A stretch of 64,000 bases of DNA from Candidatus Gottesmanbacteria bacterium (GTDB taxonomy: Bacteria > Patescibacteriota > Microgenomatia > UBA10105 > UBA927), in contig JAHFKK010000001.1 of NCBI GenBank assembly GCA_023245335.1, positions 363,282 to 427,281 on the forward strand, read 5' to 3'. The position numbers were made by a program, and so were the translations under genes. Numbering within the stretch: position 1 is the first letter of the stretch; every line of letters starts with the position of its first letter. Positions 4,695-57,389 of this stretch are shown here, piece after piece. The notes beneath the pieces are model-generated. The model did not search any database, was not told the origin of the DNA, and was given only the letters and a program-made list of their open reading frames with translations.

Positions 4695-6098
4695 TTATTG
4701 GGTTTTGGTGATCTCCAGAAGTGCGACACTTTCAGGCGGCATGTAAACTTGTGTGTTGATAGAGGGATCCTGTGCGTCAATGGTCGTCGTCGCATCTCTT
4801 CCCAAAAGCAGGCGTTGTCGTACAGTATACGTTCCGGGTTCTATGCCTCGGATGAGCACGGGAACGTTTTCGCTATGACTCCCGCTTGCGTCAAAATTCA
4901 CGAGTAACACGCGTATGACGTTATTCTGAGTTGATGCGTATGCGCTGACCCATGATCCTTCGCCGGTAAGCGAGAGACGTGTGCCGGCCATAGAATCAAG
5001 GAAGTTATAGACGTAGTAGCGGGGTTTTTTCTTGAGCCCGTTATCGTCATTGGTGATGAGTCCCCAGCCGGATCCGTCCTGTTGTTTCGGTCCATCTTTG
5101 AGTTCGAAGGTAAAAAGATATGTGGGTCCGCCGGAGGTAAGCTGGCGTATGACCGCCGCAGCATGCGCTGCAGCATACGAGGTGCCGTAGCCTGTGCTTT
5201 TATCCCCCGTAAACCCGAATTCAGTAATCAGCTTCGGAAGTAGTGTATACGTGGGGAATGGCAGCAATGCTTTGACGACATTGCGTTCGTCGAGAGCAAA
5301 CTGGTCCGGGTCGCTGAGATATGAATGCCAGGAAAAAAAGTTGACCCGGTTCCCTGATTGGACGAGCGCCGTAATCCAGTTCACAAACAGCCCTGATGTC
5401 GCCGGTCCTCCGAGATAGAACGTATTTACGTTCTGTGCATTTCCTGCTCCTACCGAAGCGTAGTGATAGAGGGTGAGATAGTTTCGGTCACCGCTCAGGG
5501 TCCAGCCCCCAAACTGGGTCAGATTCGGTTCGTTCCATACTTCATAGTAGATGCCGGGTATGTTCATGCCGCCTTTGCCGCTATAGTGTTCGATGGTTTT
5601 TTGTACTACGGTTGCCCAATCATTCCAATCATTGGGAGGACCGGAGATGACGCCGTCTTTTGCTATGACGTCCGGCATATAAGAAAGGGCGAGGACGGGT
5701 TTTGCGCCCGTACTGACCACTGTAGAGACCGCCTGATCAAGCTTAGACCAATCAAAGCGAAGATCAGAGCCATCCCGTGATACGACATGGTAGAGATCAT
5801 AGAGATGGTCGAGGCGTATGACTTTCGGGTGCAGAGCGGTCACATCTCCTTTGACGGACGCGAGCATATCTGTCGATTCTTCTCCGCCCTGAGCGAACGC
5901 GTGATAAAAGTCGGTCTTTATCGGATCAAGCGTCAGTTTTGCCTCAACGACGATGTTAGCAGGCGTTCCTGCCGCCCGGGACATCAAGGTAACGGTCTGT
6001 TGGATAACGAGAAGGAATAGCGGTAGAAAGACAAGAAGCGCCACAATCGAAATGACGGAAGTGACTCGCGATGACACATGCCGGATGAGTATACTCAT
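4695..6098 (-). CDS. Membrane-anchored glycoside hydrolase, clan GH-A (GH39/GH5-like)
   Basis: N-terminal TM anchor. YYEVWNEPN motif (catalytic acid/base Glu of clan GH-A) and a TIM-barrel-like length. The ATG at 6098 overlaps the stop of the upstream surface-protein gene (ATGA). Confidence 0.6.
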   Translation of the reverse strand: MSILIRHVSSRVTSVISIVALLVFLPLFLLVIQQTVTLMSRAAGTPANIVVEAKLTLDPIKTDFYHAFAQGGEESTDMLASVKGDVTALHPKVIRLDHLYDLYHVVSRDGSDLRFDWSKLDQAVSTVVSTGAKPVLALSYMPDVIAKDGVISGPPNDWNDWATVVQKTIEHYSGKGGMNIPGIYYEVWNEPNLTQFGGWTLSGDRNYLTLYHYASVGAGNAQNVNTFYLGGPATSGLFVNWITALVQSGNRVNFFSWHSYLSDPDQFALDERNVVKALLPFPTYTLLPKLITEFGFTGDKSTGYGTSYAAAHAAAVIRQLTSGGPTYLFTFELKDGPKQQDGSGWGLITNDDNGLKKKPRYYVYNFLDSMAGTRLSLTGEGSWVSAYASTQNNVIRVLLVNFDASGSHSENVPVLIRGIEPGTYTVRQRLLLGRDATTTIDAQDPSINTQVYMPPESVALLEITKTQ

Positions 6099-7126
6099 GA
6101 TTTATTTCGAATTAATACCGGTGCCAGTGCCCCACTTAGTAATAGTATCATGCCAAGCGCTAAGAGGAGGATTGTCGGCTCCACAGATCCTGACGCCGGC
6201 ATGGCACTTCCTGATGCGCCATTTTCCGTACCGTTGGATACGACGAATGCGAGCGTCGCAGTTTCCGTTTGACCGGTCGTCGGATTTTGTGCAGCTACGA
6301 CGACTGTGTGTGGACCAGTCTCGAGCGCATTCGGTATGGTATACGTCCAATTTCCGTTGGCATCCGCAGTGACGGTCGCAGTGATCTGTTGGGTAGAATA
6401 GACCGCGATCGTGACGGTACTTCCCGGAGGCGCTTTTCCTTCTATCGTCGGCTTTTGTGTCGCTATCGATTCGTCTTTAGTTGGTGAATCGATCGTGACA
6501 GCAGATGATGTCGCGCTATCAGTTGATTCCGGAGTGGGTGACAGCGTCGGGGTGAGTGTATCCGACGGATTGCCGGTCGGACTAGGAGTCGGAACAACAC
6601 CGCCTCCTATGGTAATCGTAGACGGGGTCGAGCTCGTGAGTACGTTTGTGCTTCCTTCGCCTAAAGCACCGACATAGGTGTCGGCGGTCGCGAACTTGAC
6701 GGTGACCGGCGTAGTCGTACCGGCCAATGCTTTCATGTTTATTGTCGCGACGAGCCCCGTACCAGTGACAGGAGTGATCGTATTAGTTGACCCGACTTGA
6801 ATTGAGGCCGTACCGTTTCCGACAACGCCGGATGAAAGGATATTGGGAAACATCGTGCCGTTATGAATCCACTCGGCTTCAAGCTTGGTAGGGTCAAAGG
6901 CAAGACTTACCTGCACTGCCACCACTTGATTTGCTGCCGTATCCATATGGACTTCGAGCGTAAACGTGTCACCGACTTGTTTGGTGAGCGCAGACGGAGT
7001 GAGGGTCAGTGTTGTAGCAGGCGCCGCGCGTTGGCGTATTTCCTGGTTTCGCATCACGAGAAATATCGTCGCGGGTATAGCAAGAAGAATAAGGAGAGAA
7101 CCAATAATAAGAACAACTCGTTTCAT
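6095..7126 (-). CDS. Surface protein with cohesin-like N-domain, Thr/Pro-rich linker, Ig-like domain and C-terminal TM anchor
   Basis: Start chosen at the internal Met MKRVVLIIGSLLILLAIPATIF (signal/TM). Cohesin-like segment TFTLEVHMDTAANQVVAVQVSLAFDPTKLEA. PT-rich linker. C-terminal hydrophobic anchor ILLLALGMILLLSGALAPVLIRNKS. The track ORF runs to 7213. Confidence 0.5.
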   Translation of the reverse strand: MKRVVLIIGSLLILLAIPATIFLVMRNQEIRQRAAPATTLTLTPSALTKQVGDTFTLEVHMDTAANQVVAVQVSLAFDPTKLEAEWIHNGTMFPNILSSGVVGNGTASIQVGSTNTITPVTGTGLVATINMKALAGTTTPVTVKFATADTYVGALGEGSTNVLTSSTPSTITIGGGVVPTPSPTGNPSDTLTPTLSPTPESTDSATSSAVTIDSPTKDESIATQKPTIEGKAPPGSTVTIAVYSTQQITATVTADANGNWTYTIPNALETGPHTVVVAAQNPTTGQTETATLAFVVSNGTENGASGSAMPASGSVEPTILLLALGMILLLSGALAPVLIRNKS

Positions 7127-7264
7127 GTCTTCCTCTATTATGAAGAAGTCAACTGATGTACGCAATAGTGCGGCATAGTACATATTTGTCGAGCTTCCGT
7201 CCTCGTGACCCACGAGCGGATTTCGTGGCTATAAAAGTGCAGTGCTACGTGTATTGTCGACCCC

Positions 7265-7301
7265 TTGACAAGAGTTAGCACTCAATGTATATTAGTGCTA
7301 A
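7265..7301 (+). promoter_or_regulatory. Sigma70-like promoter (TTGACA-17-TATATT) overlapping a CIRCE operator (HrcA site)
   Basis: TTGACA at 7265..7270 and TATATT at 7288..7293. Inverted repeat TTAGCACTC-N9-TAGTGCTAA at 7275..7301, one mismatch from the CIRCE consensus TTAGCACTC-N9-GAGTGCTAA. It lies directly upstream of hrcA. Confidence 0.75.
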
Positions 7302-7311
7302 TTTCAATAAT

Positions 7312-8043
7312 ATGAATCCCGTAGCAGATCTCACTCCCAGACAGATTCAAATTCTGAAAGCGATTATCGACGAATATATCGCGACGGCGGAAGCCGTAGG
7401 GAGCGAAACATTGGAAAAAAAGTACAATCTCGGTGTTTCCCCGGCGACCATCCGCAATGAGATGGCACACCTCACCGAAATCGGAATGCTCAATCAGCCG
7501 CATACGTCCGCGGGGCGCAGCCCCACGCCTATCGCGCTCAAATATTACGTCGATCAGCTCATGAAGACCAAAGATATGTCGGTCGCGGAAGAAGTCTCGG
7601 TCAAGGAAAAAATTTGGGATTACCGACAAGAGATAGATAAGTTACTCCGGGAAGCGACCAAGACGCTCGCAGAAAAAACCAAGACACTTGCTATTACAGC
7701 GACGAACGAAGGAGACCTTTACTATGCAGGTGCTGCCAATATTTTGGAAATGCCGGAATTTTATGATTATCAACTGACGCATGAACTCTTCGGGACACTG
7801 GATGAATACGGATTTTGGTGGCACGTATTGGAACAGCACGACGACCTATTTTCCATATTAGTCGGCGACGATTTGTCGCATGGGGCACTCACTCAATGCG
7901 GATTTGTCTATCACAAGTTCAAAACGCCGCACGTATCCGGCGCCATCGGGATCGTCGGTCCGTCGAGAATGAACTATCCGTTTGTGATCCCGGTGGTACG
8001 ATACATGGGAGATCTCATAGATGAATTTGCGAGCAGTTGGTAA
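7312..8043 (+). CDS. hrcA: Heat-inducible transcription repressor HrcA
   Basis: N-terminal winged-helix LTPRQIQILKAIIDEYIATAEAVGSETL and HrcA-like length. First gene of the grpE-dnaK operon, behind the CIRCE site. Confidence 0.85.
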   Translation: MNPVADLTPRQIQILKAIIDEYIATAEAVGSETLEKKYNLGVSPATIRNEMAHLTEIGMLNQPHTSAGRSPTPIALKYYVDQLMKTKDMSVAEEVSVKEKIWDYRQEIDKLLREATKTLAEKTKTLAITATNEGDLYYAGAANILEMPEFYDYQLTHELFGTLDEYGFWWHVLEQHDDLFSILVGDDLSHGALTQCGFVYHKFKTPHVSGAIGIVGPSRMNYPFVIPVVRYMGDLIDEFASSW

Positions 8044-8084
8044 CGAACCCCCAGGGTTGTCCGTCTGCCCGTTCCAAAAGACAT

Positions 8085-8561
8085 ATGAAGAAACACGATG
8101 ATGTGGTGAAACCAAAAGATGATGTGCGTGTGGGGGAACTCGAGAAAGAGGCGGAAGACTGGAAGAGTAAATATCTGCGCGCGCTTGCCGATTATCAAAA
8201 TTTGGAAAAGCGGTCGCGGGAACAGGTTAACGACTCGCGTAAATTCGCAGCGGAGCTCATTTTAGCCCGCCTCATTCCTGTCGTCGATACGTTTGCTAAA
8301 GTGAGAGTACATGTGAAGGATGTCGGGTTTGATCTGGCATACAAGGAATTAACGGTTGTTCTTACGGAGCAGGGTGTGGAAGCGATGCATGTTCTGGGAA
8401 AGCCATTTGATCCGCACGAAATGGAATGTATCGAAGTCGTTCCGGGTAACGACAACGAAGTGGTAGAGGAAGTATTTCCCGGCTATCGTTTTCGCGGCAA
8501 AGTATTACGGGTAGCCCAAGTAAAGGTGGGCAAATCCGATACAGCCCAACGTACAAATTAA
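8085..8561 (+). CDS. grpE: Nucleotide exchange factor GrpE
   Basis: Coiled-coil N-terminal region followed by a GrpE C-terminal region. Sits between hrcA and dnaK. ATG at 8085. Confidence 0.85.
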   Translation: MKKHDDVVKPKDDVRVGELEKEAEDWKSKYLRALADYQNLEKRSREQVNDSRKFAAELILARLIPVVDTFAKVRVHVKDVGFDLAYKELTVVLTEQGVEAMHVLGKPFDPHEMECIEVVPGNDNEVVEEVFPGYRFRGKVLRVAQVKVGKSDTAQRTN

Positions 8562-8583: not shown

Positions 8584-10494
8584 ATGGCAAAGATTATCGG
8601 TATTGATCTCGGAACGACAAATTCATGTGTATCCGTCATGTCAGGAGGAGCTCCTGAGGTGATTCATTCTGCTGAAGGCAGGAATGTGATTCCGTCGGTC
8701 GTCGACCCTATCAAAAATATCGTCGGTGACGTCGCCAAACGCCAGATGGTATTGAATCCCAAATCCACTATATTTTCCGTCAAACGTCTGATGGGCCGCA
8801 AATTCTCCGATCCCTCGGTACAAGCGGACATGAAATGGTTGCCCTATACGATAAAAGCCGGCAAAAACGACATGGCGGTCGTCGTCGTGGACGGCAAAGA
8901 GTTTACGCCGCAGGAAATTTCGGCAAAGATACTTGCCAAAATCAAAGCGGATGCCGAAAAGTTCCTGGGCGAACCCGTCAAACAGGCCGTCATCACGGTA
9001 CCCGCGTACTTCGATGACAGCCAGCGCCAGGCGACCAAACAGGCAGGGGAGATCGCAGGGCTCGAAGTCATGCGGATCCTCAATGAGCCGACGGCTGCGT
9101 CACTTGCATACGGATTGGATAAGAAAAATGCGCACACGATCGCAGTCTACGACTTGGGCGGTGGCACGTTTGACATCTCCATACTGGAATTAGGTGACGG
9201 CGTCTATGAAGTGAAAGCAACAAACGGCGATACCCATCTTGGTGGTGACGATTTCGATAAAGTAATCCTTGATTACCTTGCCGACGAGTTCAAGAAAGAA
9301 AACAGTGTGGATCTGCGGAAAGATTCGCAGGCGCTCCAGAGGCTTCGTGATGCTGCCGAAAAAGCAAAAATCGAGCTTTCATCTTCGATGGAAGCAGAGA
9401 TTAATCTGCCATTCATCACCCAGGGCAAAGACGGGCCTTTACACCTCGTCATGAAGCTTACCCGGGCGAAACTTGAGTCGCTCGTTGAACCGCTCATCCA
9501 AAAAAGCATCGAGCCGGTCAAGAAGTGTCTCGCGGACTCCAAGCTCAAAGTCGGGGACATCAATGAGATCGTTCTCGTGGGAGGCATGACCCGTATGCCG
9601 AAAGTAGTCGAAGTCGTGAAATCCTTCTTTGGTAAAGATCCCAACGCCACGGTAAATCCCGATGAAGTGGTGGCAGTAGGAGCGGCAGTTCAGGCCGGGG
9701 TTCTAACCGGAGAAGTCAAAGATGTCGTTCTTCTCGACGTGACGCCGCTTACTTTGAGCGTCGAAACATTGGGCGGAGTATCGACACCGATGATTTCGAG
9801 AAATACTACCGTGCCGACGAGCAAGACAGAAATCTACTCGACGGCCGCAGACAATCAGACGTCGGTAGAGATTAACGTCCTACAAGGAGAACGCCCGATG
9901 GCGACAGATAATAAATCGCTTGGACGGTTTGTCCTGTCCGGCATTCCGGCGGCACCGCGCGGCGTCCCGCAGGTTGAGGTGACGTTTGACATAGACGCTA
10001 ATGGTATTCTCAACGTGACTGCCAAGGACAAAGCGAGCGGCAAAGTAAGCTCGATAAAAATCACGGGCTCGACCGGTCTTTCGAAGGACGAGATCGAGAA
10101 GATGAAGAAAGAAGCCGAGGCCAATGCCACGGCAGATTCCGAAAAGAAAGATAAGATCGAGGCAAAAAACAAAGCGGATAACATGCTTTATGTCGCCGAG
10201 AAAACGTTGAAAGACGCCGGTGATAAAGCCAAGCCCGAGGATAAGACAGCAGTCGAGGAAAAGACGAAGGCACTGAAAGACATACTGGAGTCCGGATCCA
10301 AAGAAGATCTGGAAACCAAAACCAGCGAGCTTTCCGACGCAGTCCAAAAGGTCGGAGCTGCGATGTACCAGCAGAATCAGCCTCCGGCAGGAGGAGATCA
10401 GGCCCAACCGGGTGCTGATGCCGGAGTTACAGCTGAAGACGGCAAAAAAAAGGACGATAAGGCGAAAGCAGAAGAGGGAGAGGTGGTTAGCTAA
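8584..10494 (+). CDS. dnaK: Chaperone DnaK (Hsp70)
   Basis: Hallmark Hsp70 motifs [20 protein letters not shown] and EVLLLDVTPLSLG-like ([18 protein letters not shown]). 636 aa. Confidence 0.97.
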
Positions 10495-10495
10495 T

Positions 10496-10927
10496 ATGAA
10501 AAATAAACATAAATCATATGGTATTGATTTATTGGTAATTTGTGATCACGCCTTATTTTCACAAGACAAAAAGCTCTCAATTATTGGTATATTTGACAGA
10601 CTGTTTGTGAAATCAGTGCCCGCCAATCACGCTAAAATGGTAATTGCGGCATCAATAGTTGGAAAAAATGACTCAGACTGTACCGTAAGCTTGGAGTTTA
10701 TCAGTCCAAGCGGAAAAAATCTGGTCGGAATTAAACCGATTTTTATGAATGTTAGGCTGGGAGCAAATGGCAAAGGGAATTTAATTAGTGAAATCGTCGG
10801 ATTTCCAGTATCAGAAGTCGGTGAATATAAGGTCCGAATGCTCATAAACGGAGAATCACTTCGAGAGATCCCCCTCTATGTGCAGCAGGTAATTTCAAAT
10901 GAAGACGTTAGAAAGCAACCCAATTGA
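10496..10927 (+). CDS. Hypothetical protein; first gene of an AT-rich foreign cassette inserted between dnaK and dnaJ
   Basis: ATG 2 nt after the dnaK stop. 143 aa, MKNKHKSYGIDLLVICDHALF... GC about 35% against about 52% for dnaK. No family recognised. Confidence 0.5.
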   Translation: MKNKHKSYGIDLLVICDHALFSQDKKLSIIGIFDRLFVKSVPANHAKMVIAASIVGKNDSDCTVSLEFISPSGKNLVGIKPIFMNVRLGANGKGNLISEIVGFPVSEVGEYKVRMLINGESLREIPLYVQQVISNEDVRKQPN

Positions 10928-11762
10928 GAGATATCCAACATATATTGATGAGATTGTAACTCCCTACGACATCAGCCAAGCTCCCTTTATTGACGGGTGT
11001 TTTAACGTCGATGAAACAGATTGGCGTTTAGCCAATAGCCAACTAACTGATGGTTTAGACTGTGCTGATAAGTACACTCGATATACTAGTGGTAATGAAC
11101 AAAATTTTATATTCAAAGCAGCCGAAGAGTGTAGTGTGGAGCCCCTTTCTGATCCGTTCGCGTCATATATTGGTAATCGTTGGATGGGTATTCCCGTAGC
11201 GAGAAGTGCTCCTATGGTTTCTCGCATGAATAGTCGAAGATATTATCTCGGTGTTGTGTCGTACGCGACATCAATTACTACTCTCGCAGGCTGGGATTCC
11301 GGTATACCGCAGGATGGGTTAACTGAAATTGACACAACATACATGCAAGGTGATGGGGTTTTACGTGCGTGGCTTAGGGATCATGATCATGCATGGCGAC
11401 ACATTGTTACATGGACAGGGAGCGATGGCGTCATGCATTATTATTTCATTGACTACGGAAGGAGCTGTCTTGATTTGCGAACACAGTGGAATGAAACAAA
11501 ATTACTTAACGATTCTGTCGGTGGCTGTTTTTGGGATATTGAGCATGATCCAGATAAAATAATAGAATATGTCAAGTGCATTCTCCGTATACCCGACTGG
11601 TTGATTAACTATAAATTAATGCAGTATGCATCATCGATGCAAAAGTATGATGTTGTAAATAAAGAATTTTATCTTCGTCGGGCATATGAGATGTCATCAT
11701 ATTTAATCAAGAGTAAGCGTAATCTACTACATGATGTTAGTAATTTTCTTTCGGCTAGGTAA
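10899..11762 (+). CDS. Hypothetical protein; second gene of the AT-rich cassette between dnaK and dnaJ
   Basis: 287 aa ORF that overlaps the previous ORF by 29 nt and ends 2 nt before the dnaJ ATG. AT-rich. No family recognised. Rich in Trp/Tyr/Asp, with an HDHAWRH segment. Confidence 0.5.
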
Positions 11763-11764
11763 CT

Positions 11765-12676
11765 ATGGCAACGAAACGCGATTATTACGAAATATTGGGA
11801 GTCGGGAAATCGGCTTCTGCTGCGGAAATTAAGTCCGCGTACCGGAAGCTCGCGTTGCAATGGCACCCGGACCGAAATAAAGCCGTAGACGCCAACGAGA
11901 AATTCAAGGAAATAAACGAAGCCTACGCAGTACTTTCCGATAGCCAAAAGAAAAGCGCGTACGACCAGTTCGGCCATGCAGCATTTCAGCCGGGTGGCGG
12001 TATGGGTGGGGCAGGCGGAGGCAATCCTTTTAGCGGCGGGTTCCGCCAACAGGGACCATTCCAGTACTACTATTCTTCAGGCGGACAACAGGGCGGGTCG
12101 CCCTTCTCCGGGTTTGAGGATATGATCGATCCGTTTGAGATATTCGAGCAGTTTTTTGGTGGAGGATTTTCTCCCCGCGGCCAGCGCGCGCGGCCGCACC
12201 CCGCATACGAAGTCACGATCGATTTCATGGATGCGGTCAAAGGTGCCACGCGTGAAGTGCACGTCCCCAAAGGTGGTGCGGGTGAAGGATCCGTACGGAA
12301 AACGATCAAAATTCCGGCCGGGGTCGACAGCGGCTCACGCATACGATTCGATGAATTTGATCTCGTCGTATCGGTGCGTCCTGACAAGCGGTTTACCAGA
12401 GAGGGGGATGACATCATACTCACGGAAGAAGTTCCGTTCAGCCTCGCCGCCCTGGGTGGAGTCGTAGACGTCCCGACCATAGAAGAATCGGTCAAAATCC
12501 GAATTCAGCCAGGTACCCAGCCCGGGACACTCATCCGCCTTCGCGGCAAAGGCGTGCCGCACGTCCGGGGAACCGGCCGTGGGGATCAGTACGTACGGGT
12601 GCAGTTACGGGTGCCGAGTCATTTATCCCGCGAGCAAAAAGAACTCTTGGAGAAGCTGGAAAGAAGCGGGGTATGA
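11765..12676 (+). CDS. dnaJ: DnaJ-family co-chaperone (J domain plus G/F-rich region plus C-terminal domains, no zinc-finger insert)
   Basis: J domain DYYEILGV...HPDRN with the HPD motif. Gly/Phe-rich region. The protein has zero cysteines, so the CxxCxGxG zinc finger is absent. Confidence 0.85.
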
Positions 12677-52665: not shown

Positions 52666-53421
52666 ATGGCTAAATTTATCGGAGGGACTAGTAAATATCT
52701 AATCCAGCAAAAATTTTATTACATGCTGGGAGGGTATCTTCTCATGATTTGTCTTGTGGTCGCGTTGCTGTGGTATTGGGTGTTTATACTCCATTTTGTC
52801 CACAATATTTGGGTTATTTTGACAGCTACGATAGTTTTTCTTATCGTTTACAAGGTCATTACTTACTTTGTTAATGACGGGATGAAGCACGAATTTGCTT
52901 TTGGTTATGGGATAACCGGTGAAGCAAAAGTAGCAGAGGAACTCAACCGTTTACCCGCCAGCTACACAGTTATTCAAGATGTGAAACTTTCAGATACAAA
53001 GACAAACATTGATTTTGTAGTCCTTGGCCCAAATGGAATATGGGCAGTTGAAGTAAAAAGTCACAAAGGCAATATCACTTATGATGGAAGCCGGTTGTTG
53101 AGATATGGCCGGCCACTCGAAAAGAATTTTATCGGTCAGTCACGTCTCGAGGCTACCGCGCTAACTGATTATCTTCAGTCACATATAGACCGTCACATAT
53201 ATGTTGATTCACTCCTCGTATTTTCAAGTCCAAAAGCGACCATGCGCTTTGGTGAGCACCCGATACAAGATGTGGTTATAATTGGTGCTTCATGGCTTAA
53301 CCGGCATATCCTTGAACATCAGTCGCAAATTAAGTTTACACCGCAGGATATCGACCAAATTGCACGTGTCCTGCAATTAGAAAAAATAGATGGTAGTAAA
53401 CCTGCAATGGGTGTAAAATAG
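52666..53421 (+). CDS. NERD (nuclease-related domain) protein with N-terminal TM helices
   Basis: Three N-terminal hydrophobic helices, then a NERD-like core (GEAKVAEELNRL...IDFVVLGPNGIWAVEVKSHKGNI). AT-rich. Confidence 0.65.
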   Translation: MAKFIGGTSKYLIQQKFYYMLGGYLLMICLVVALLWYWVFILHFVHNIWVILTATIVFLIVYKVITYFVNDGMKHEFAFGYGITGEAKVAEELNRLPASYTVIQDVKLSDTKTNIDFVVLGPNGIWAVEVKSHKGNITYDGSRLLRYGRPLEKNFIGQSRLEATALTDYLQSHIDRHIYVDSLLVFSSPKATMRFGEHPIQDVVIIGASWLNRHILEHQSQIKFTPQDIDQIARVLQLEKIDGSKPAMGVK

Positions 53422-53443
53422 GGCAGATCAGAACTATTTTTAT

Positions 53444-55075
53444 ATGCCACAGCTTACTTGGATCGGAAAAGATAAAGTCGAAAACCACGACAAGGACCTT
53501 CCTTTTCGAGTGCTGAAACCAAACAAAAAACTTTCAGTCGGTGAGGACGACAATCTTCTTATACAAGGTGACAATCTCGAAGCATTAAAAGCTTTAATGC
53601 CGTTTTACTACAATAAGATTAAGTGTATTTATATTGATCCACCATATAACACGGGAAACGAGAAGTGGGTTTATAACGACAAGGTAAATTCGGCCCGAAT
53701 TAAAAAATGGCTTCATTCCGTAGTAGGAACGGAAGATCTTGAACGTCACGATAAGTGGTTATGTATGATTTATCCTAGAATTAAACTTCTTAGGGATTTA
53801 TTAAAAGAAGACGGTGCTATTTTTGTTTCGATAGACGATAACGAAGTAGACAATCTTAGGCTTTTAATGGACGAAGTATTTGGGTCTAAAAACTTCGTAG
53901 CTATGATAATAGTTCAAATTAATCCAAGAGGAAGAACATTAGATAGATTTTTAGCTAAAACCCACGAGTATATTCTTCTTTATGCGAAAAATGCCGAACT
54001 CGATTCTTGTATAAATCTTATTCCTAAAGTAGGTCATTCTTTAGGAACATATAACAAAAAGGACGACAAAGGTATTTATAGAACACTTGAATTAAGAAAT
54101 CGGAACCCCGTTTTTAACCGCAAAAACCGACCTAATTTATATTACCCAATCTTTGTAAATCCTGTTGATTTTAAGATTTCTTTAACTAAAGACACCAAAC
54201 ACACAATTGAGGTTTTCCCCTTGAACAGCACAGGTGTTGAAGGGTGTTGGACTTGGGGAAAAGATAAAGTAGCACAAGAAATAGGTACTCTACTTGGCAA
54301 AAAGGTTTCTACCGGTGTATGGAGAATCTATAGAAAAGATTACCTTTACGACGATCAGGGAAATGAGTCATTAACTAAGGCAAAAGCACTTTGGACAGAA
54401 TCAGAATTTAATAATGAAAATGGGAAAGAGATTGTAAGGAAAATATTTGGTGGGAATTCGCCCTTTGACTATCCAAAATCGGTAGATCTGATTAAGCATT
54501 GTATCAAATTAGGATCTGGAAGTAGCGATATTATTATGGATTCTTTCGCCGGATCAGGTACCACAGGTCACGCAGTATTAGAATTAAATAAAGAAGATGG
54601 TGGTAAACGAAAGTTTATATTGGTCGAGCTTGAAGAGGAAATAGCTAAAAAAACAACCGCAGTTAGACTTCAAAAAGTAATCAAAGGATATAACGGAGCT
54701 ATGTATCCTAACGGGACAGGGCAAGGCTTCCAGTATTTAGATTTAAACGGAGAATTATTTGACAGAACAGGTATTATAAACAACGTAGTAAATTACGAAG
54801 ACCTAGCCTCTTATATTTACTTTACTGAAACAAAGTCATATTTAGATCTAGGAATAATCAGAAATTCCTATATAGGTAGTTTTGGTTCAAATAATTATTT
54901 CTTATTATTCAACGGTATAGGAAAGAATGTTTTAGACGAGAGGTTTTTAAAGTCAATTTCCAGATATGAAGGGAAAAAGGTTGTATTTGCCGATAAATGC
55001 CTATTAGACGACGATTATTGTGAAAAGCACAACATTGTCTTTAAACAAATTCCTTACGAATTAAAGAAATATTAA
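53444..55075 (+). CDS. mod: Type III restriction-modification methyltransferase (Mod), N6-adenine beta-class
   Basis: Motif IV IYIDPPYNTGN near the N-terminus and motif I DSFAGSGTTGHA near residue 365, the beta-class order. AT-rich. Directly followed by res. Confidence 0.85.
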   Translation: MPQLTWIGKDKVENHDKDLPFRVLKPNKKLSVGEDDNLLIQGDNLEALKALMPFYYNKIKCIYIDPPYNTGNEKWVYNDKVNSARIKKWLHSVVGTEDLERHDKWLCMIYPRIKLLRDLLKEDGAIFVSIDDNEVDNLRLLMDEVFGSKNFVAMIIVQINPRGRTLDRFLAKTHEYILLYAKNAELDSCINLIPKVGHSLGTYNKKDDKGIYRTLELRNRNPVFNRKNRPNLYYPIFVNPVDFKISLTKDTKHTIEVFPLNSTGVEGCWTWGKDKVAQEIGTLLGKKVSTGVWRIYRKDYLYDDQGNESLTKAKALWTESEFNNENGKEIVRKIFGGNSPFDYPKSVDLIKHCIKLGSGSSDIIMDSFAGSGTTGHAVLELNKEDGGKRKFILVELEEEIAKKTTAVRLQKVIKGYNGAMYPNGTGQGFQYLDLNGELFDRTGIINNVVNYEDLASYIYFTETKSYLDLGIIRNSYIGSFGSNNYFLLFNGIGKNVLDERFLKSISRYEGKKVVFADKCLLDDDYCEKHNIVFKQIPYELKKY

Positions 55076-55076
55076 T

Positions 55077-57389
55077 ATGTTAAATTTAAAAAAGTATCAA
55101 GCTAGAACATTACAAGAATTAGATGATTTTCTGGTTAATGCAAGTGCCTTAAAAGGTGGGCGCGGAATTAGAATAGCCTATCTAGATCAGGTAGGTGACG
55201 AAGAAAGGCATTACAAGCCAATAGAAAAGCTGGAGGAATCACCCTTTGTATGTATTAAAATTCCGACTGGCGGTGGAAAAACCTTAGTTGCCTGTCACGC
55301 ACTTCCAGTTATCCTCGATCGTTATTTAAAAGATAAAAATGGAAAAGGTCTTGTTATATGGTTTGTTCCTTCGGACGCTATCAGGTCCCAAACTCTAAAC
55401 AACCTTAAAGACAGAAACCATCCCTATCGTGAAGTATTAGATAGTAAGTTTGGAAATAACGTTAAAGTTTTAACGATTGAAGAAGCCTTATCTATATCAA
55501 AATCGGATATACAAAATAATCTATGTATCGTAGTTGCTAGTCTTTCAGCATTTAGACGAACAGATACATTGTGGTTAAAGGTTTTTCAGAATAACGGTTC
55601 TTTAATATCCCATTTTGAAAATCTTATTGAAGACAAAGACTTTTTTGAAAAAGACGAGGAAGGTGAAATCATTTATTCACTAGCAAATGTGATCAAAATG
55701 AACAATCCGCTTATAATAGTTGACGAAGGACATAATGCACAAACACTGTTATCATTTGAAATGCTTCAGAAGCTTAACCCCTCGTTTATTTTAGAATTTA
55801 CCGCTACACCAAGGGCAGAAAGCAATGTATTAGTTAAAGTTCTTGCTTCTGAATTAAAGGCAGAAAAGATGGTCAAGATTCCCATTTACTTAGATAACGT
55901 TACCCAATGGCAAGAAGCAATTCGTGATGGCGTTAAGCAACGTAATGATCTTGAAAAGCTAGCGGGAAAAGAAAAGCGATTAACAAAAGAATATATTCGT
56001 CCAGTCGCCCTACTTCAAGCAGAACAAGAAAAGGAAAACAACACAAAGATATATGTAGAAAAAATTAAACGGTTTTTACTGGAAGAACTTGAGATTCCAG
56101 AAGCACAAATTGCAATTAAGACCAGTAAGCAAGATCAGATTAAAGGAATTGACTTATTTAAATCGAACTGTCCGATACGCTACATAATTACCGTAAACGC
56201 CCTTAAAGAAGGCTGGGATTGTTCTTTTGCTTATGTTCTTATTTCTGTTGCTAATCTAGGCGCTACAATAGCCGTAGAACAGACAATGGGACGCATAATG
56301 CGTCTACCTAATGCCAAGGACAAAAAGTCGGTAGATCTTAACTATTCCTATATCTATACGTCTTCTGAAAGCTTTAACAGGGCTTCTAGCGCCATTATAA
56401 AGGGCTTAGAGCAAAACGGTTATTCAAGACAAGATCTTCGTAAAAATGAAGGAACGATCGTCCCAGAAAAAGAAGAATTCGATAAGTTTATCAAGGATAA
56501 AGATATTAAAGTTCCATTGTTGGGGATAAAAGGCAAAGGCGACGCTTTAGCTTTCAATAGAGATCTTATTGGTGAAGATTTCCGAATCTATGATCATTCC
56601 AAACCATTCGAAATCGATTTTCATAATGACCAGAATCAAAGAATTAAGATTGACATAGATAAAGAAAACGGCTTATATCGCATAACGCAGGGGAAACTTA
56701 GCCTAATCTTGTACCCGGAAGATTTTTCAATTGAAGAAGTAGGTAATTGGCTAAAACAGAATATCAGACATAATGTCGTTTCTTCCGACGAAATGTCTAA
56801 ATATATCGATTTGGTATTGGTTGAAGCTTCAAAGAAACATAAGATCGAAGAAATAAGCCTGAATAGGTTTCGACTTAAAGAATTGATCGGATTCGAAGTC
56901 TTAAAGATAATTACCGAATATGCCAAAAGTGTATTTGATAAGCTAATGTCTAAGAAGGCCCTTAACACCGATTCCGCTTACTTTACGCCGACAGAAAGTA
57001 TCTTTCTTTTAAGATTATCCGAAGAACACTTTCAGAAACACTTATTTGAACGGTCAGGTCATTTAAACGGCGAAGAAACAGATTTTGCTATGCGTTTAGA
57101 CACGCTAGATAATCTTATGTGGTGGTATAGGAATCGCGAAAAAGAAGACTTCTACCTTCAAGGGTGGAAACAGGGGAAGTTCTACCCCGATTTTATAGCC
57201 AAAACCAAAAGCGGAAAGTATTTACTAATTGAATATAAAGGTGAAGATAGACTTAGTAATGAAGATACTGGCTACAAGAAAGATCTGGGAAATTTATGGT
57301 CAAAGATTTCCGGAGGTAAACATAAGTTTTATTTAGTAAACAAAAGTAATTCAGACGAAATTCTTAAAGAAATCTCAAGAATTGCGTAG
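55077..57389 (+). CDS. res: Type III restriction endonuclease Res subunit (SF2 helicase plus C-terminal PD-(D/E)xK nuclease)
   Basis: Walker A IPTGGGKT, Walker B IIVDEGHNA, helicase motif VI-like QTMGRIMR, and a C-terminal YPDFIAKTKSGKYLLIEYKG (PD...ExK). Confidence 0.8.
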   Translation: MLNLKKYQARTLQELDDFLVNASALKGGRGIRIAYLDQVGDEERHYKPIEKLEESPFVCIKIPTGGGKTLVACHALPVILDRYLKDKNGKGLVIWFVPSDAIRSQTLNNLKDRNHPYREVLDSKFGNNVKVLTIEEALSISKSDIQNNLCIVVASLSAFRRTDTLWLKVFQNNGSLISHFENLIEDKDFFEKDEEGEIIYSLANVIKMNNPLIIVDEGHNAQTLLSFEMLQKLNPSFILEFTATPRAESNVLVKVLASELKAEKMVKIPIYLDNVTQWQEAIRDGVKQRNDLEKLAGKEKRLTKEYIRPVALLQAEQEKENNTKIYVEKIKRFLLEELEIPEAQIAIKTSKQDQIKGIDLFKSNCPIRYIITVNALKEGWDCSFAYVLISVANLGATIAVEQTMGRIMRLPNAKDKKSVDLNYSYIYTSSESFNRASSAIIKGLEQNGYSRQDLRKNEGTIVPEKEEFDKFIKDKDIKVPLLGIKGKGDALAFNRDLIGEDFRIYDHSKPFEIDFHNDQNQRIKIDIDKENGLYRITQGKLSLILYPEDFSIEEVGNWLKQNIRHNVVSSDEMSKYIDLVLVEASKKHKIEEISLNRFRLKELIGFEVLKIITEYAKSVFDKLMSKKALNTDSAYFTPTESIFLLRLSEEHFQKHLFERSGHLNGEETDFAMRLDTLDNLMWWYRNREKEDFYLQGWKQGKFYPDFIAKTKSGKYLLIEYKGEDRLSNEDTGYKKDLGNLWSKISGGKHKFYLVNKSNSDEILKEISRIA

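Follow-up and report, generated by a model that had tools for sequence, protein, structure and literature searches.

A DUF6941 gene and a putative kinase-like gene embedded between dnaK and dnaJ in a heat-shock operon of Patescibacteria

A 64,000-nucleotide (nt) stretch of a Candidatus Gottesmanbacteria genome (contig JAHFKK010000001.1, positions 363,282 to 427,281; hereafter the window) contains two overlapping open reading frames, ORF1 and ORF2, encoding proteins of 143 and 287 aa and filling the junction between dnaK and dnaJ. ORF1 is a member of the uncharacterised family DUF6941, and ORF2 belongs to no sequence family that we can detect and has a predicted atypical protein-kinase-like fold. 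We propose that the two genes form an accessory module of the DnaK system that is inherited vertically and specific to Gottesmanbacteria-like and Levybacteria-like Patescibacteria, consisting of a binding protein and a phosphotransferase that are co-expressed under the control of HrcA, and we put the probability of this reading at roughly 0.55. The arrangement hrcA-grpE-dnaK-dnaJ is among the most conserved in bacteria and conserved extra genes inside it are rare; judging from the predicted structures, the locus described here appears to be a class I heat-shock operon into which a putative kinase and its partner have been built.

The dnaK-dnaJ junction and its conservation

The six genes hrcA-grpE-dnaK-ORF1-ORF2-dnaJ are co-directional (+ strand; Table 1), with successive spacings of -7, 22, 1, -29 and 2 nt. 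The initial annotation of this DNA had described two overlapping ORFs of these sizes at the junction and its coordinates agree with ours; the dnaJ ATG is two bases past the ORF2 stop as it stated, and the ORF1 ATG is one base past that of dnaK. A Shine-Dalgarno-like sequence for ORF1, GGGAGAGGTGG, lies at 10476-10486 in the last codons of dnaK, and the overlap of ORF1 and ORF2 is 29 nt long. The view that the pair lacks a promoter and terminator of its own also holds, in that no strong promoter-like site exists in the segment 10496-11762, where the + strand has only three 9/12 promoter matches and nothing resembling a terminator hairpin. Because the gaps are so short (1, -29 and 2 nt) and no terminator-like site is present on this strand, we infer that ORF1 and ORF2 share the dnaK transcript and are co-transcribed with dnaK and dnaJ.

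The operon has a CIRCE inverted repeat at its promoter, the feature that places it in the HrcA/CIRCE (class I heat-shock) regulon, and the earlier proposal that the pair is wired into a hrcA-grpE-dnaK-dnaJ operon of this type is borne out. The two arms (TTAGCACTC-N9-TAGTGCTAA) constitute the sole CIRCE match in the window; the element lies immediately 5' of hrcA and overlaps an 11/12 match to the promoter consensus. CIRCE-like elements are found in the same place 5' of hrcA in the related loci L001, L006, L012, L016, L018, L020, L022 and L027.

An identical ORF1-ORF2 pair is present on other assemblies of the same organism, and a second Patescibacteria genome (L001) encodes a pair with 62% and 53% identity to ORF1 and ORF2 respectively. 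Between the window and L001 the proportions of nonsynonymous and synonymous differences (pN/pS) are 0.22/0.71 for ORF1 and 0.32/0.78 for ORF2, as compared to 0.25/0.78 for grpE and 0.09/0.74 for dnaK; ORF1 evolves at about the rate of grpE, and ORF2 somewhat faster. Against the orthologues in L001, L014 and L006, pN is 0.22-0.30 for ORF1 and 0.32-0.43 for ORF2, and pS is saturated at 0.62-0.79, a pattern indicating that both genes are under purifying selection. Since orthologues occur elsewhere with pN of 0.22-0.43 against pS of 0.62-0.79, these are real genes and not chance reading frames.

Scanning 185,579 species, each represented by one genome, with a DUF6941 alignment identifies 80 loci, the context of which was read by tblastn with the proteins of the window. 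Fifteen of them (L016-L030) are Patescibacteria-like, and are labelled Curtissbacteria, Levybacteria, Cerribacteria or 'Patescibacteria group', with two labelled simply 'bacterium' and four metagenome-assembled genomes (MAGs) labelled Gammaproteobacteria or Pseudomonadales. The order hrcA-grpE-dnaK-DUF6941 is present in 14 of the 15, the remaining contig (L030) beginning inside DUF6941, and dnaJ follows 20-250 nt further on wherever the contig continues, with the exception of L016. The four MAGs (L016, L021, L023 and L024) have the Patescibacteria-type operon and a DnaK with 65-70% identity to that of the window, and are probably mis-binned or mislabelled. In all, 19 lineages with a dnaK-linked DUF6941 gene were recovered (the window, L001, L006, L014, L013 – which is the same locus as L029 – L012, L099 and twelve further loci of the genome scan); dnaK is directly upstream in every one, and L012 and L016 are the only ones in which a contig of sufficient length does not show dnaJ just downstream. 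The site is kept across lineages in which DnaK is only 65-73% identical. The location of DUF6941 directly 3' of dnaK across these loci is therefore an old and stable feature of these Patescibacteria, and our literature searches found no description of a dnaK-DUF6941-(ORF2)-dnaJ variant of the operon.

The context of ORF2 can be read in seven lineages (the window; L001/L002; L006-L009; L014/L015; L013; L096-L098; L099), and in all seven the order is DUF6941-ORF2-dnaJ, preceded by dnaK if the contig extends far enough. The DUF6941 protein of L006-L009 is deposited as Candidatus Gottesmanbacteria and L013/L029 is Candidatus Levybacteria; Gottesmanbacteria-like and Levybacteria-like Patescibacteria are placed in the Microgenomates group. 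ORF2 is lacking in 14 of the 15 loci L016-L030 (it is present in L029), and also in L012, where dnaK-DUF6941 is followed by no dnaJ, such that ORF1 stands at this site without ORF2 in 15 lineages (L012, L016-L028 and L030). From this distribution ORF2 appears to be either a later addition or a differentially lost gene, in two sublineages. Because DUF6941 is directly 3' of dnaK in all Patescibacteria-type loci for which upstream sequence was recovered, and ORF2 homologues with as little as 23-25% identity share the same slot, any insertion must be ancient and the pair vertically inherited.

Four species (the window, L001, L006 and L014) share the fine structure of the junction, with a Shine-Dalgarno-like GAGGTGGT in the 3' end of dnaK, a gap of 1-2 nt, and the 29-nt overlap of ORF1 and ORF2. 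In L013 the two ORFs are separated by 35 nt with no overlap, and a 9-bp GC-rich hairpin with flanking T/A runs (6916-6936) lies between ORF2 and dnaJ; here dnaJ may be transcribed apart, with ORF1 and ORF2 staying with dnaK.

The base composition of the two genes is unusual. The initial annotation gave it as about 35% GC; the measured value is 39.6% (37.7% for ORF1 and 40.5% for ORF2), and the contrast with the flanks is real, with dnaK at 51.5%, dnaJ at 56.1% and the window as a whole at 49.0%. GC at third codon positions (GC3) is 0.35 in both ORFs, versus a mean of 0.54 (standard deviation 0.075) over 58 window ORFs, 53 of which are in the range 0.45-0.66; the pair is a true compositional outlier, and the only others are three genes at 52.7-57.4 kb. 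These three form an AT-rich restriction-modification/defence island (52666-57389; GC 35-40%, GC3 0.30-0.375; Table 1), after which comes a peroxiredoxin gene with host composition.

In each lineage with ORF2 the pair has a lower GC content than the genes on either side. GC3 values for ORF1/ORF2 and dnaK/dnaJ are 0.35/0.35 and 0.58/0.59 in the window, 0.43/0.37 and 0.53/0.52 in L001, 0.34/0.34 and 0.61/0.60 in L014, 0.34/0.33 and 0.37/0.47 in L006, and 0.21/0.22 and 0.28/0.22 in L013; in this last locus the third-position offset is weak and is seen mainly in total GC (0.30/0.32 versus 0.41/0.39). The offset is small or absent in the lineages with DUF6941 only. Recent horizontal transfer was considered as the source of the low GC and rejected, as the same offset is seen in orthologous loci whose synonymous divergence is saturated, and an AT-rich donor among the Levybacteria is unsupported, with window ORF1 having 36% identity to Levybacteria ORF1 as against 39-41% to that of ORF2-less lineages. 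With un-ameliorated recent transfer excluded, some force must maintain the low GC; the simplest idea is that selection for poor or rare codons may hold both proteins sub-stoichiometric on a heavily translated mRNA.

Table 1. Coordinates of the heat-shock operon and of other features referred to in the text
Feature	Sequence	Coordinates	Strand	Evidence or remarks
sigma-70-like promoter, TTGACA-17-TATATT	window	7265..7293	+	11/12 consensus match; -10 hexamer within CIRCE spacer
CIRCE operator (HrcA binding site), TTAGCACTCAATGTATATTAGTGCTAA	window	7275..7301	+	1 mismatch to consensus; 0.01 expected by chance
hrcA (repressor)	window	7312..8043	+	ORF list (start listed 7285; 7312 probable); sequence; Pfam HrcA on orthologues
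grpE	window	8037..8561	+	ORF list; orthologue carries PF01025
dnaK (Hsp70)	window	8584..10494	+	PF00012, E 4.7e-254; TAA 10492-10494
ORF1, 143 aa, DUF6941	window	10496..10927	+	PF22091
ORF2, 287 aa, predicted atypical protein-kinase-like fold	window	10899..11762	+	no sequence family; TAA 11760-11762
dnaJ	window	11765..12676	+	PF00226, E 1.2e-27; PF01556, E 3.8e-34; no other Pfam domain
NERD nuclease-domain protein	window	52666-53421		defence island
type III-like DNA methylase (N6_N4_Mtase)	window	53444-55075		defence island
ResIII/helicase restriction subunit	window	55077-57389		defence island
Limnocylindria-type locus (example)	L036	5076-6378
HSP20	L052	5034-5471		PF00011
His_Phos_1	L052	5468-5953
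DUF6941	L052	5977-6384

Several other features of the region can be noted. The start of hrcA is probably the ATG at 7312 (MNPVADL...) rather than the one in the ORF list, because the latter falls inside CIRCE and the promoter. The 303-residue DnaJ has a J domain and a C-terminal domain with no zinc-finger domain by Pfam, and it is therefore a class-B-like (CbpA-like) J-protein; the DnaJ proteins of related loci are of similar length. Upstream of hrcA and divergent from it are genes encoding a GH39 glycoside hydrolase and a cohesin/Big_13 surface-type protein (4695-7213, - strand), and since these are at the same position in L001, L006 and L014, the whole neighbourhood is syntenic. The housekeeping genes nusA and infB are also on the + strand near the operon. 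Scans of the whole window for tRNA genes and for Rfam families at gathering score are empty, and no RNA element therefore explains the region.

DUF6941 and its other neighbourhoods

The assignment of ORF1 to DUF6941 (PF22091) is secure (E 1.9e-21; 77.2 bits versus a cut-off of 27), and the match runs end to end, with ORF1 residues 13-130 aligned to positions 3-125 of the 125-position profile; all of the ORF1 homologues found carry PF22091. The initial annotation, which had placed neither protein in a known family, is thus correct for ORF2 and not for ORF1. Its statement that the function is undescribed stands. A full-text literature search found no papers mentioning 'DUF6941', and neither there nor in a wider search of the dnaK-operon, kinase and Patescibacteria literature did we find a description of the location of this family 3' of dnaK or near hsp20. 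DUF6941 is a catalogued but unstudied family.

Modelling suggests that ORF1 is a nine-strand immunoglobulin (Ig)-like beta-sandwich with a disordered C-terminal tail, and a sequence comparison of the ORF1 profile with solved structures gives only weak Ig-domain matches (E>0.5). The conserved polar residues are C16, D17, K26, S28, D34, R35 and N95. We note that the tails of the dnaK-linked DUF6941 proteins (window 10886-10927 and the L001-L030 orthologues) end in a conserved Asn (...KQPN, ...KKVSN, ...NKVN, ...LPN), and this terminal-Asn tail may be a short docking motif; the tails of the Limnocylindria homologues end in ...GNA instead.

The other 65 of the 80 DUF6941 loci (L031-L095) are mostly in Limnocylindria (Chloroflexota), and none has dnaK, dnaJ, grpE or hrcA within 6 kb. 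On the same strand and upstream of DUF6941 there is an Hsp20 gene in 56 of these loci and a gene for a SixA-like His_Phos_1 phosphatase in 60. The two form a tight pair with DUF6941 from 14 nt to 4 kb downstream (examples are given in Table 1), and the phosphatase gene ends no more than 120 nt from the DUF6941 match in about 18 of the 65. Because the Limnocylindria-type loci are one clade they represent roughly one more independent observation, and not 56. DUF6941 is nonetheless linked to a heat-shock gene in a second phylum, and is again beside a gene for a phospho-enzyme.

A single phage contig among 2.9 million viral contigs carries DUF6941 (L100 280-3001; IMG/VR UViG_3300031671_000090). 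There the DUF6941 gene (714-1124) has an HD_4 phosphohydrolase gene on one side and on the other an unknown gene, after which come the large terminase and portal genes, and this is a third case of DUF6941 beside a phospho-enzyme gene.

Predicted structure of ORF2

ORF2 has no match in Pfam, NCBIfam, PADLOC or PHROGs. When eight members of its family are compared with Pfam at E<=10 there is scattered single-member noise and no shared family, and the ORF2 profile searched by sequence against solved structures gives a chance match to a cellulase (E 0.45) and no kinase. Searched exhaustively with HMMER, a set of 1.84 billion representative proteins yields seven matches, one of which, to the giant adhesin P0025 (3,895 aa; eight stretches against ORF2 residues 27-102), was discarded as spurious, P0025 being a low-complexity repeat protein. 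A word-indexed homology search with the ORF2 alignment adds two members on short contigs and no more, and there are no relatives among 50,697 phage and 72,556 plasmid records. The relatives of ORF2 have 53% (L001), 44%, 38% and 20-25% aa identity, and no signal peptide is evident in ORF2 by eye.

An AlphaFold2 model of ORF2 built from eight sequences has a predicted local distance difference test score (pLDDT) of 71 and a predicted template-modelling score (pTM) of 0.76, with the remaining four models at 38-56. All of the top 50 matches given by Foldseek, which is an independent method, are kinase folds, and the best TM-scores are to CotH (0.47), CtkA (0.43) and Fam20A (0.42). The invariant residues of the family include K73, E81, G118, S121, G151, W158, R160, D163, Y181, Y182 and D185, and of these K73, E81, D163 and D185 are invariant in all eight sequences, down to 20% identity. 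In the model K73 closes the strand 69-74, E81 opens the helix 81-94, R160 and D163 are just past the helix 146-159, and D185 is just past the strand 179-183; this is the order of residues in kinases, namely the beta-3 Lys, alpha-C Glu, catalytic-loop Asp and DFG-type Asp. D163 and D185 are 22 residues apart, and in CotH the corresponding separation is 23 (D228 and D251), with both of these residues needed for activity (PMC7821199).

ORF2 is thus predicted to have the two properties by which we tested for membership of the protein-kinase-like superfamily: a bilobal fold when compared with solved kinases, and Lys, Glu, Asp and Asp on the right elements. By predicted fold and motif it can be placed in this superfamily and in no known family within it, and ORF2 and its relatives appear to represent a new and very small kinase-like family.

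Proposed role, alternatives and known systems

If the two genes do serve the DnaK system in this accessory role, ORF1 and ORF2 would share a transcript with dnaK and dnaJ and be translationally coupled to them, and heat or unfolded proteins would therefore induce them. ORF2 would be an active ATP-dependent phosphotransferase in which K73 and E81 position ATP, D163 is the catalytic base and D185 binds metal, and its targets would be DnaK, DnaJ, GrpE, HrcA or the clients of the chaperones. ORF1, which is older than ORF2 and more widespread as a partner of dnaK, would be a non-enzymatic binding or adaptor protein for the substrate or for DnaK, and where ORF2 is present ORF1 may recruit or regulate it. 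More tentatively, this clade may have built post-translational control into its Hsp70 operon, with a new atypical kinase (ORF2, about ten sequences) that phosphorylates or AMPylates DnaK, a co-chaperone or HrcA, and with DUF6941 as a chaperone adaptor whose partners are DnaK in Patescibacteria, and Hsp20 and a phosphatase in Chloroflexota; this we consider possible and rather doubtful.

A number of points weigh against the proposed module. The ORF2 model is only moderately confident, only one of the five models exceeding 60, and its catalytic and activation loops (164-168 and 183-195) are below a pLDDT of 50; the Foldseek E-values are weak, at 3.6e-3 and above with none <=1e-3, and sequence-level similarity of ORF2 to any kinase family was not found. 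Folds of this type are also found in lipid and small-molecule kinases, in AMPylases and in pseudokinases, so that neither the chemistry nor the substrate class of ORF2 is fixed by the fold. Most lineages manage with DUF6941 alone, and ORF2 is therefore dispensable for the role of ORF1; gene order can, moreover, stay conserved without a functional link. The deviant GC3, in the window common only to the restriction-modification island, needs an added assumption. The proposals of co-transcription, ATP binding, phosphotransfer and contact with DnaK are all inferences.

The same conservation and operon structure would suit a pair of non-catalytic co-chaperones, with ORF2 a pseudokinase or nucleotide-sensing scaffold and ORF1 a client-binding sandwich, together tuning the substrate choice of DnaK and DnaJ. 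Neither a glycine-rich loop nor known kinase-family motifs are detected in ORF2, the residue at D163+5, which is the metal-binding Asn in canonical kinases, is His or is displaced by an insertion among the members, and the catalytic-loop region is where the model has low confidence. Pseudokinases typically lose at least one of the Lys, Glu and two Asp residues, however, and the invariance of all four at 20-25% identity is the usual sign of a retained active site, which makes this explanation unlikely. It is also conceivable that the pair, or ORF1 and later ORF2, are passenger genes that landed in a permissive intergenic site within a well-expressed operon, have stayed there, and have a function unrelated to proteostasis. 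Their GC3 deviates strongly from 53 of the 58 window ORFs, the phage homologue indicates that DUF6941 can travel, and the Chloroflexota genes are not beside dnaK; we nonetheless regard a passenger origin as unlikely, given that the site is kept at 65-73% DnaK identity despite the loss of dnaJ in L012 or a hairpin before dnaJ in L013, that the geometry of translational coupling is conserved, and that there is an independent hsp20 neighbourhood in another phylum.

A pair of short genes that overlap, the shorter of them leading, an AT-rich composition, and a spacing of the two Asp residues resembling that of HipA (D309/D332) are what might be expected of a HipA-like toxin-antitoxin or persistence module, with ORF2 a growth-arresting kinase toxin and ORF1 its neutraliser, switched on with the heat-shock regulon. 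This seems quite unlikely, as CotH, CtkA, PI4KIIα and Fam20C all fit the ORF2 fold better than HipA does, the HipA_C Pfam domain is absent in eight of eight family members even at E<=10, and hhalign of the family profile against Escherichia coli HipA gives a probability of 0.2%, such that membership is rejected. The upstream partner is predicted to be an all-beta DUF6941 sandwich and not a helix-turn-helix (HipB-type) antitoxin, and because 15 lineages have ORF1 but not ORF2 at the site, the two do not form a toxin and antidote that depend on each other obligately. The single chromosomal context in seven of seven lineages, with no plasmid or phage copies of ORF2, is also unlike that of mobile, patchily distributed toxin-antitoxin loci.

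The initial annotation had read the pair as a foreign cassette inserted precisely at this junction, perhaps for defence, abortive infection or toxin immunity, and proposed looking for it elsewhere and in defence islands. AT-richness and two small overlapping genes of undescribed function led in this direction, and a genuine AT-rich defence island in the same window shows what foreign DNA looks like. A recently acquired defence cassette is now very improbable and is already largely refuted by synteny: the slot is unchanged in every relative, as expected of vertical inheritance, and the low GC is repeated in orthologous loci at which synonymous sites are saturated. PADLOC gives 0 families at E<=1 for either protein, the neighbours (hrcA, grpE, dnaK, dnaJ, nusA and infB) have housekeeping rather than defence functions, and the pair was found in its one fixed chromosomal context, with no copy of ORF2 among the phage and plasmid records. 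Conservation at the junction in homologous genomes together with host-like composition had been named beforehand as evidence against this reading; the conservation is observed and the composition is not host-like. We note as a caution that a mobile defence module cannot be recognised from AT-richness and small overlapping ORFs alone.

Among known systems, the Bacillus-type hrcA-grpE-dnaK-dnaJ/CIRCE operon has the same gene order, single CIRCE over the promoter and tight spacing, but differs in having neither the two extra genes between dnaK and dnaJ nor a DnaJ lacking the zinc-finger domain. HipBA and HipBST kinase toxins differ from the pair in that it has no HipA_C signature, helix-turn-helix antitoxin or mobility, and ORF1 mostly occurs without ORF2. 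The closest structural matches of ORF2 are in the group of the atypical kinases CotH, Fam20C and CtkA, although it has no Pfam match, is not a member of the CotH family by its hidden Markov model, and is only 7-10% identical in structural alignments. Fam20C and CtkA are secreted. CotH is a kinase of the spore coat (PMC7821199). ORF2, in contrast, is encoded in a chaperone operon and is without a signal peptide by eye.

Should the proposed module be confirmed, DUF6941 would gain its first function, with two independent neighbourhoods suggesting a partner in proteostasis, and ORF2 would found a kinase-like family that is invisible to sequence profiles and tied to one cellular system. Bacteria with genomes of about 1.2 Mb would then be controlling their only Hsp70 machine by covalent modification, and the locus gives a definite starting point for testing how minimal bacteria regulate their chaperones and what two proteins of undescribed function do. 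In the literature consulted here, covalent control of chaperone systems is documented only for eukaryotic Hsp70, which a Legionella kinase inhibits by phosphorylating T495 (PMC13215673), and as arginine phosphorylation in Firmicutes (PMC11046695).

A parallel in organisation is McsA/McsB, in which a kinase and a small partner are likewise encoded inside a repressor-controlled heat-shock operon; the likeness is one of logic only and there is no homology. The mcsA and mcsB genes are within the clpC heat-shock operon of Bacillus (ctsR-mcsA-mcsB-clpC), and McsA is a zinc-finger protein. The arginine kinase McsB, which has a catalytic domain of the phosphagen-kinase type, and its activator McsA have been studied as heat-shock regulators, with HrcA and CtsR as major substrates (PMC11046695). 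ORF2 has no Pfam match to a phosphagen-kinase domain and its fold matches are to kinase-like proteins rather than phosphagen kinases, so that where McsB and McsA have a phosphagen-kinase domain and a zinc finger, the pair described here has a predicted kinase-like fold and beta-sandwich. If our reading is correct, it would constitute a bacterial, chromosomal counterpart of Hsp70 phosphoregulation, and an analogue of McsA/McsB of independent origin.

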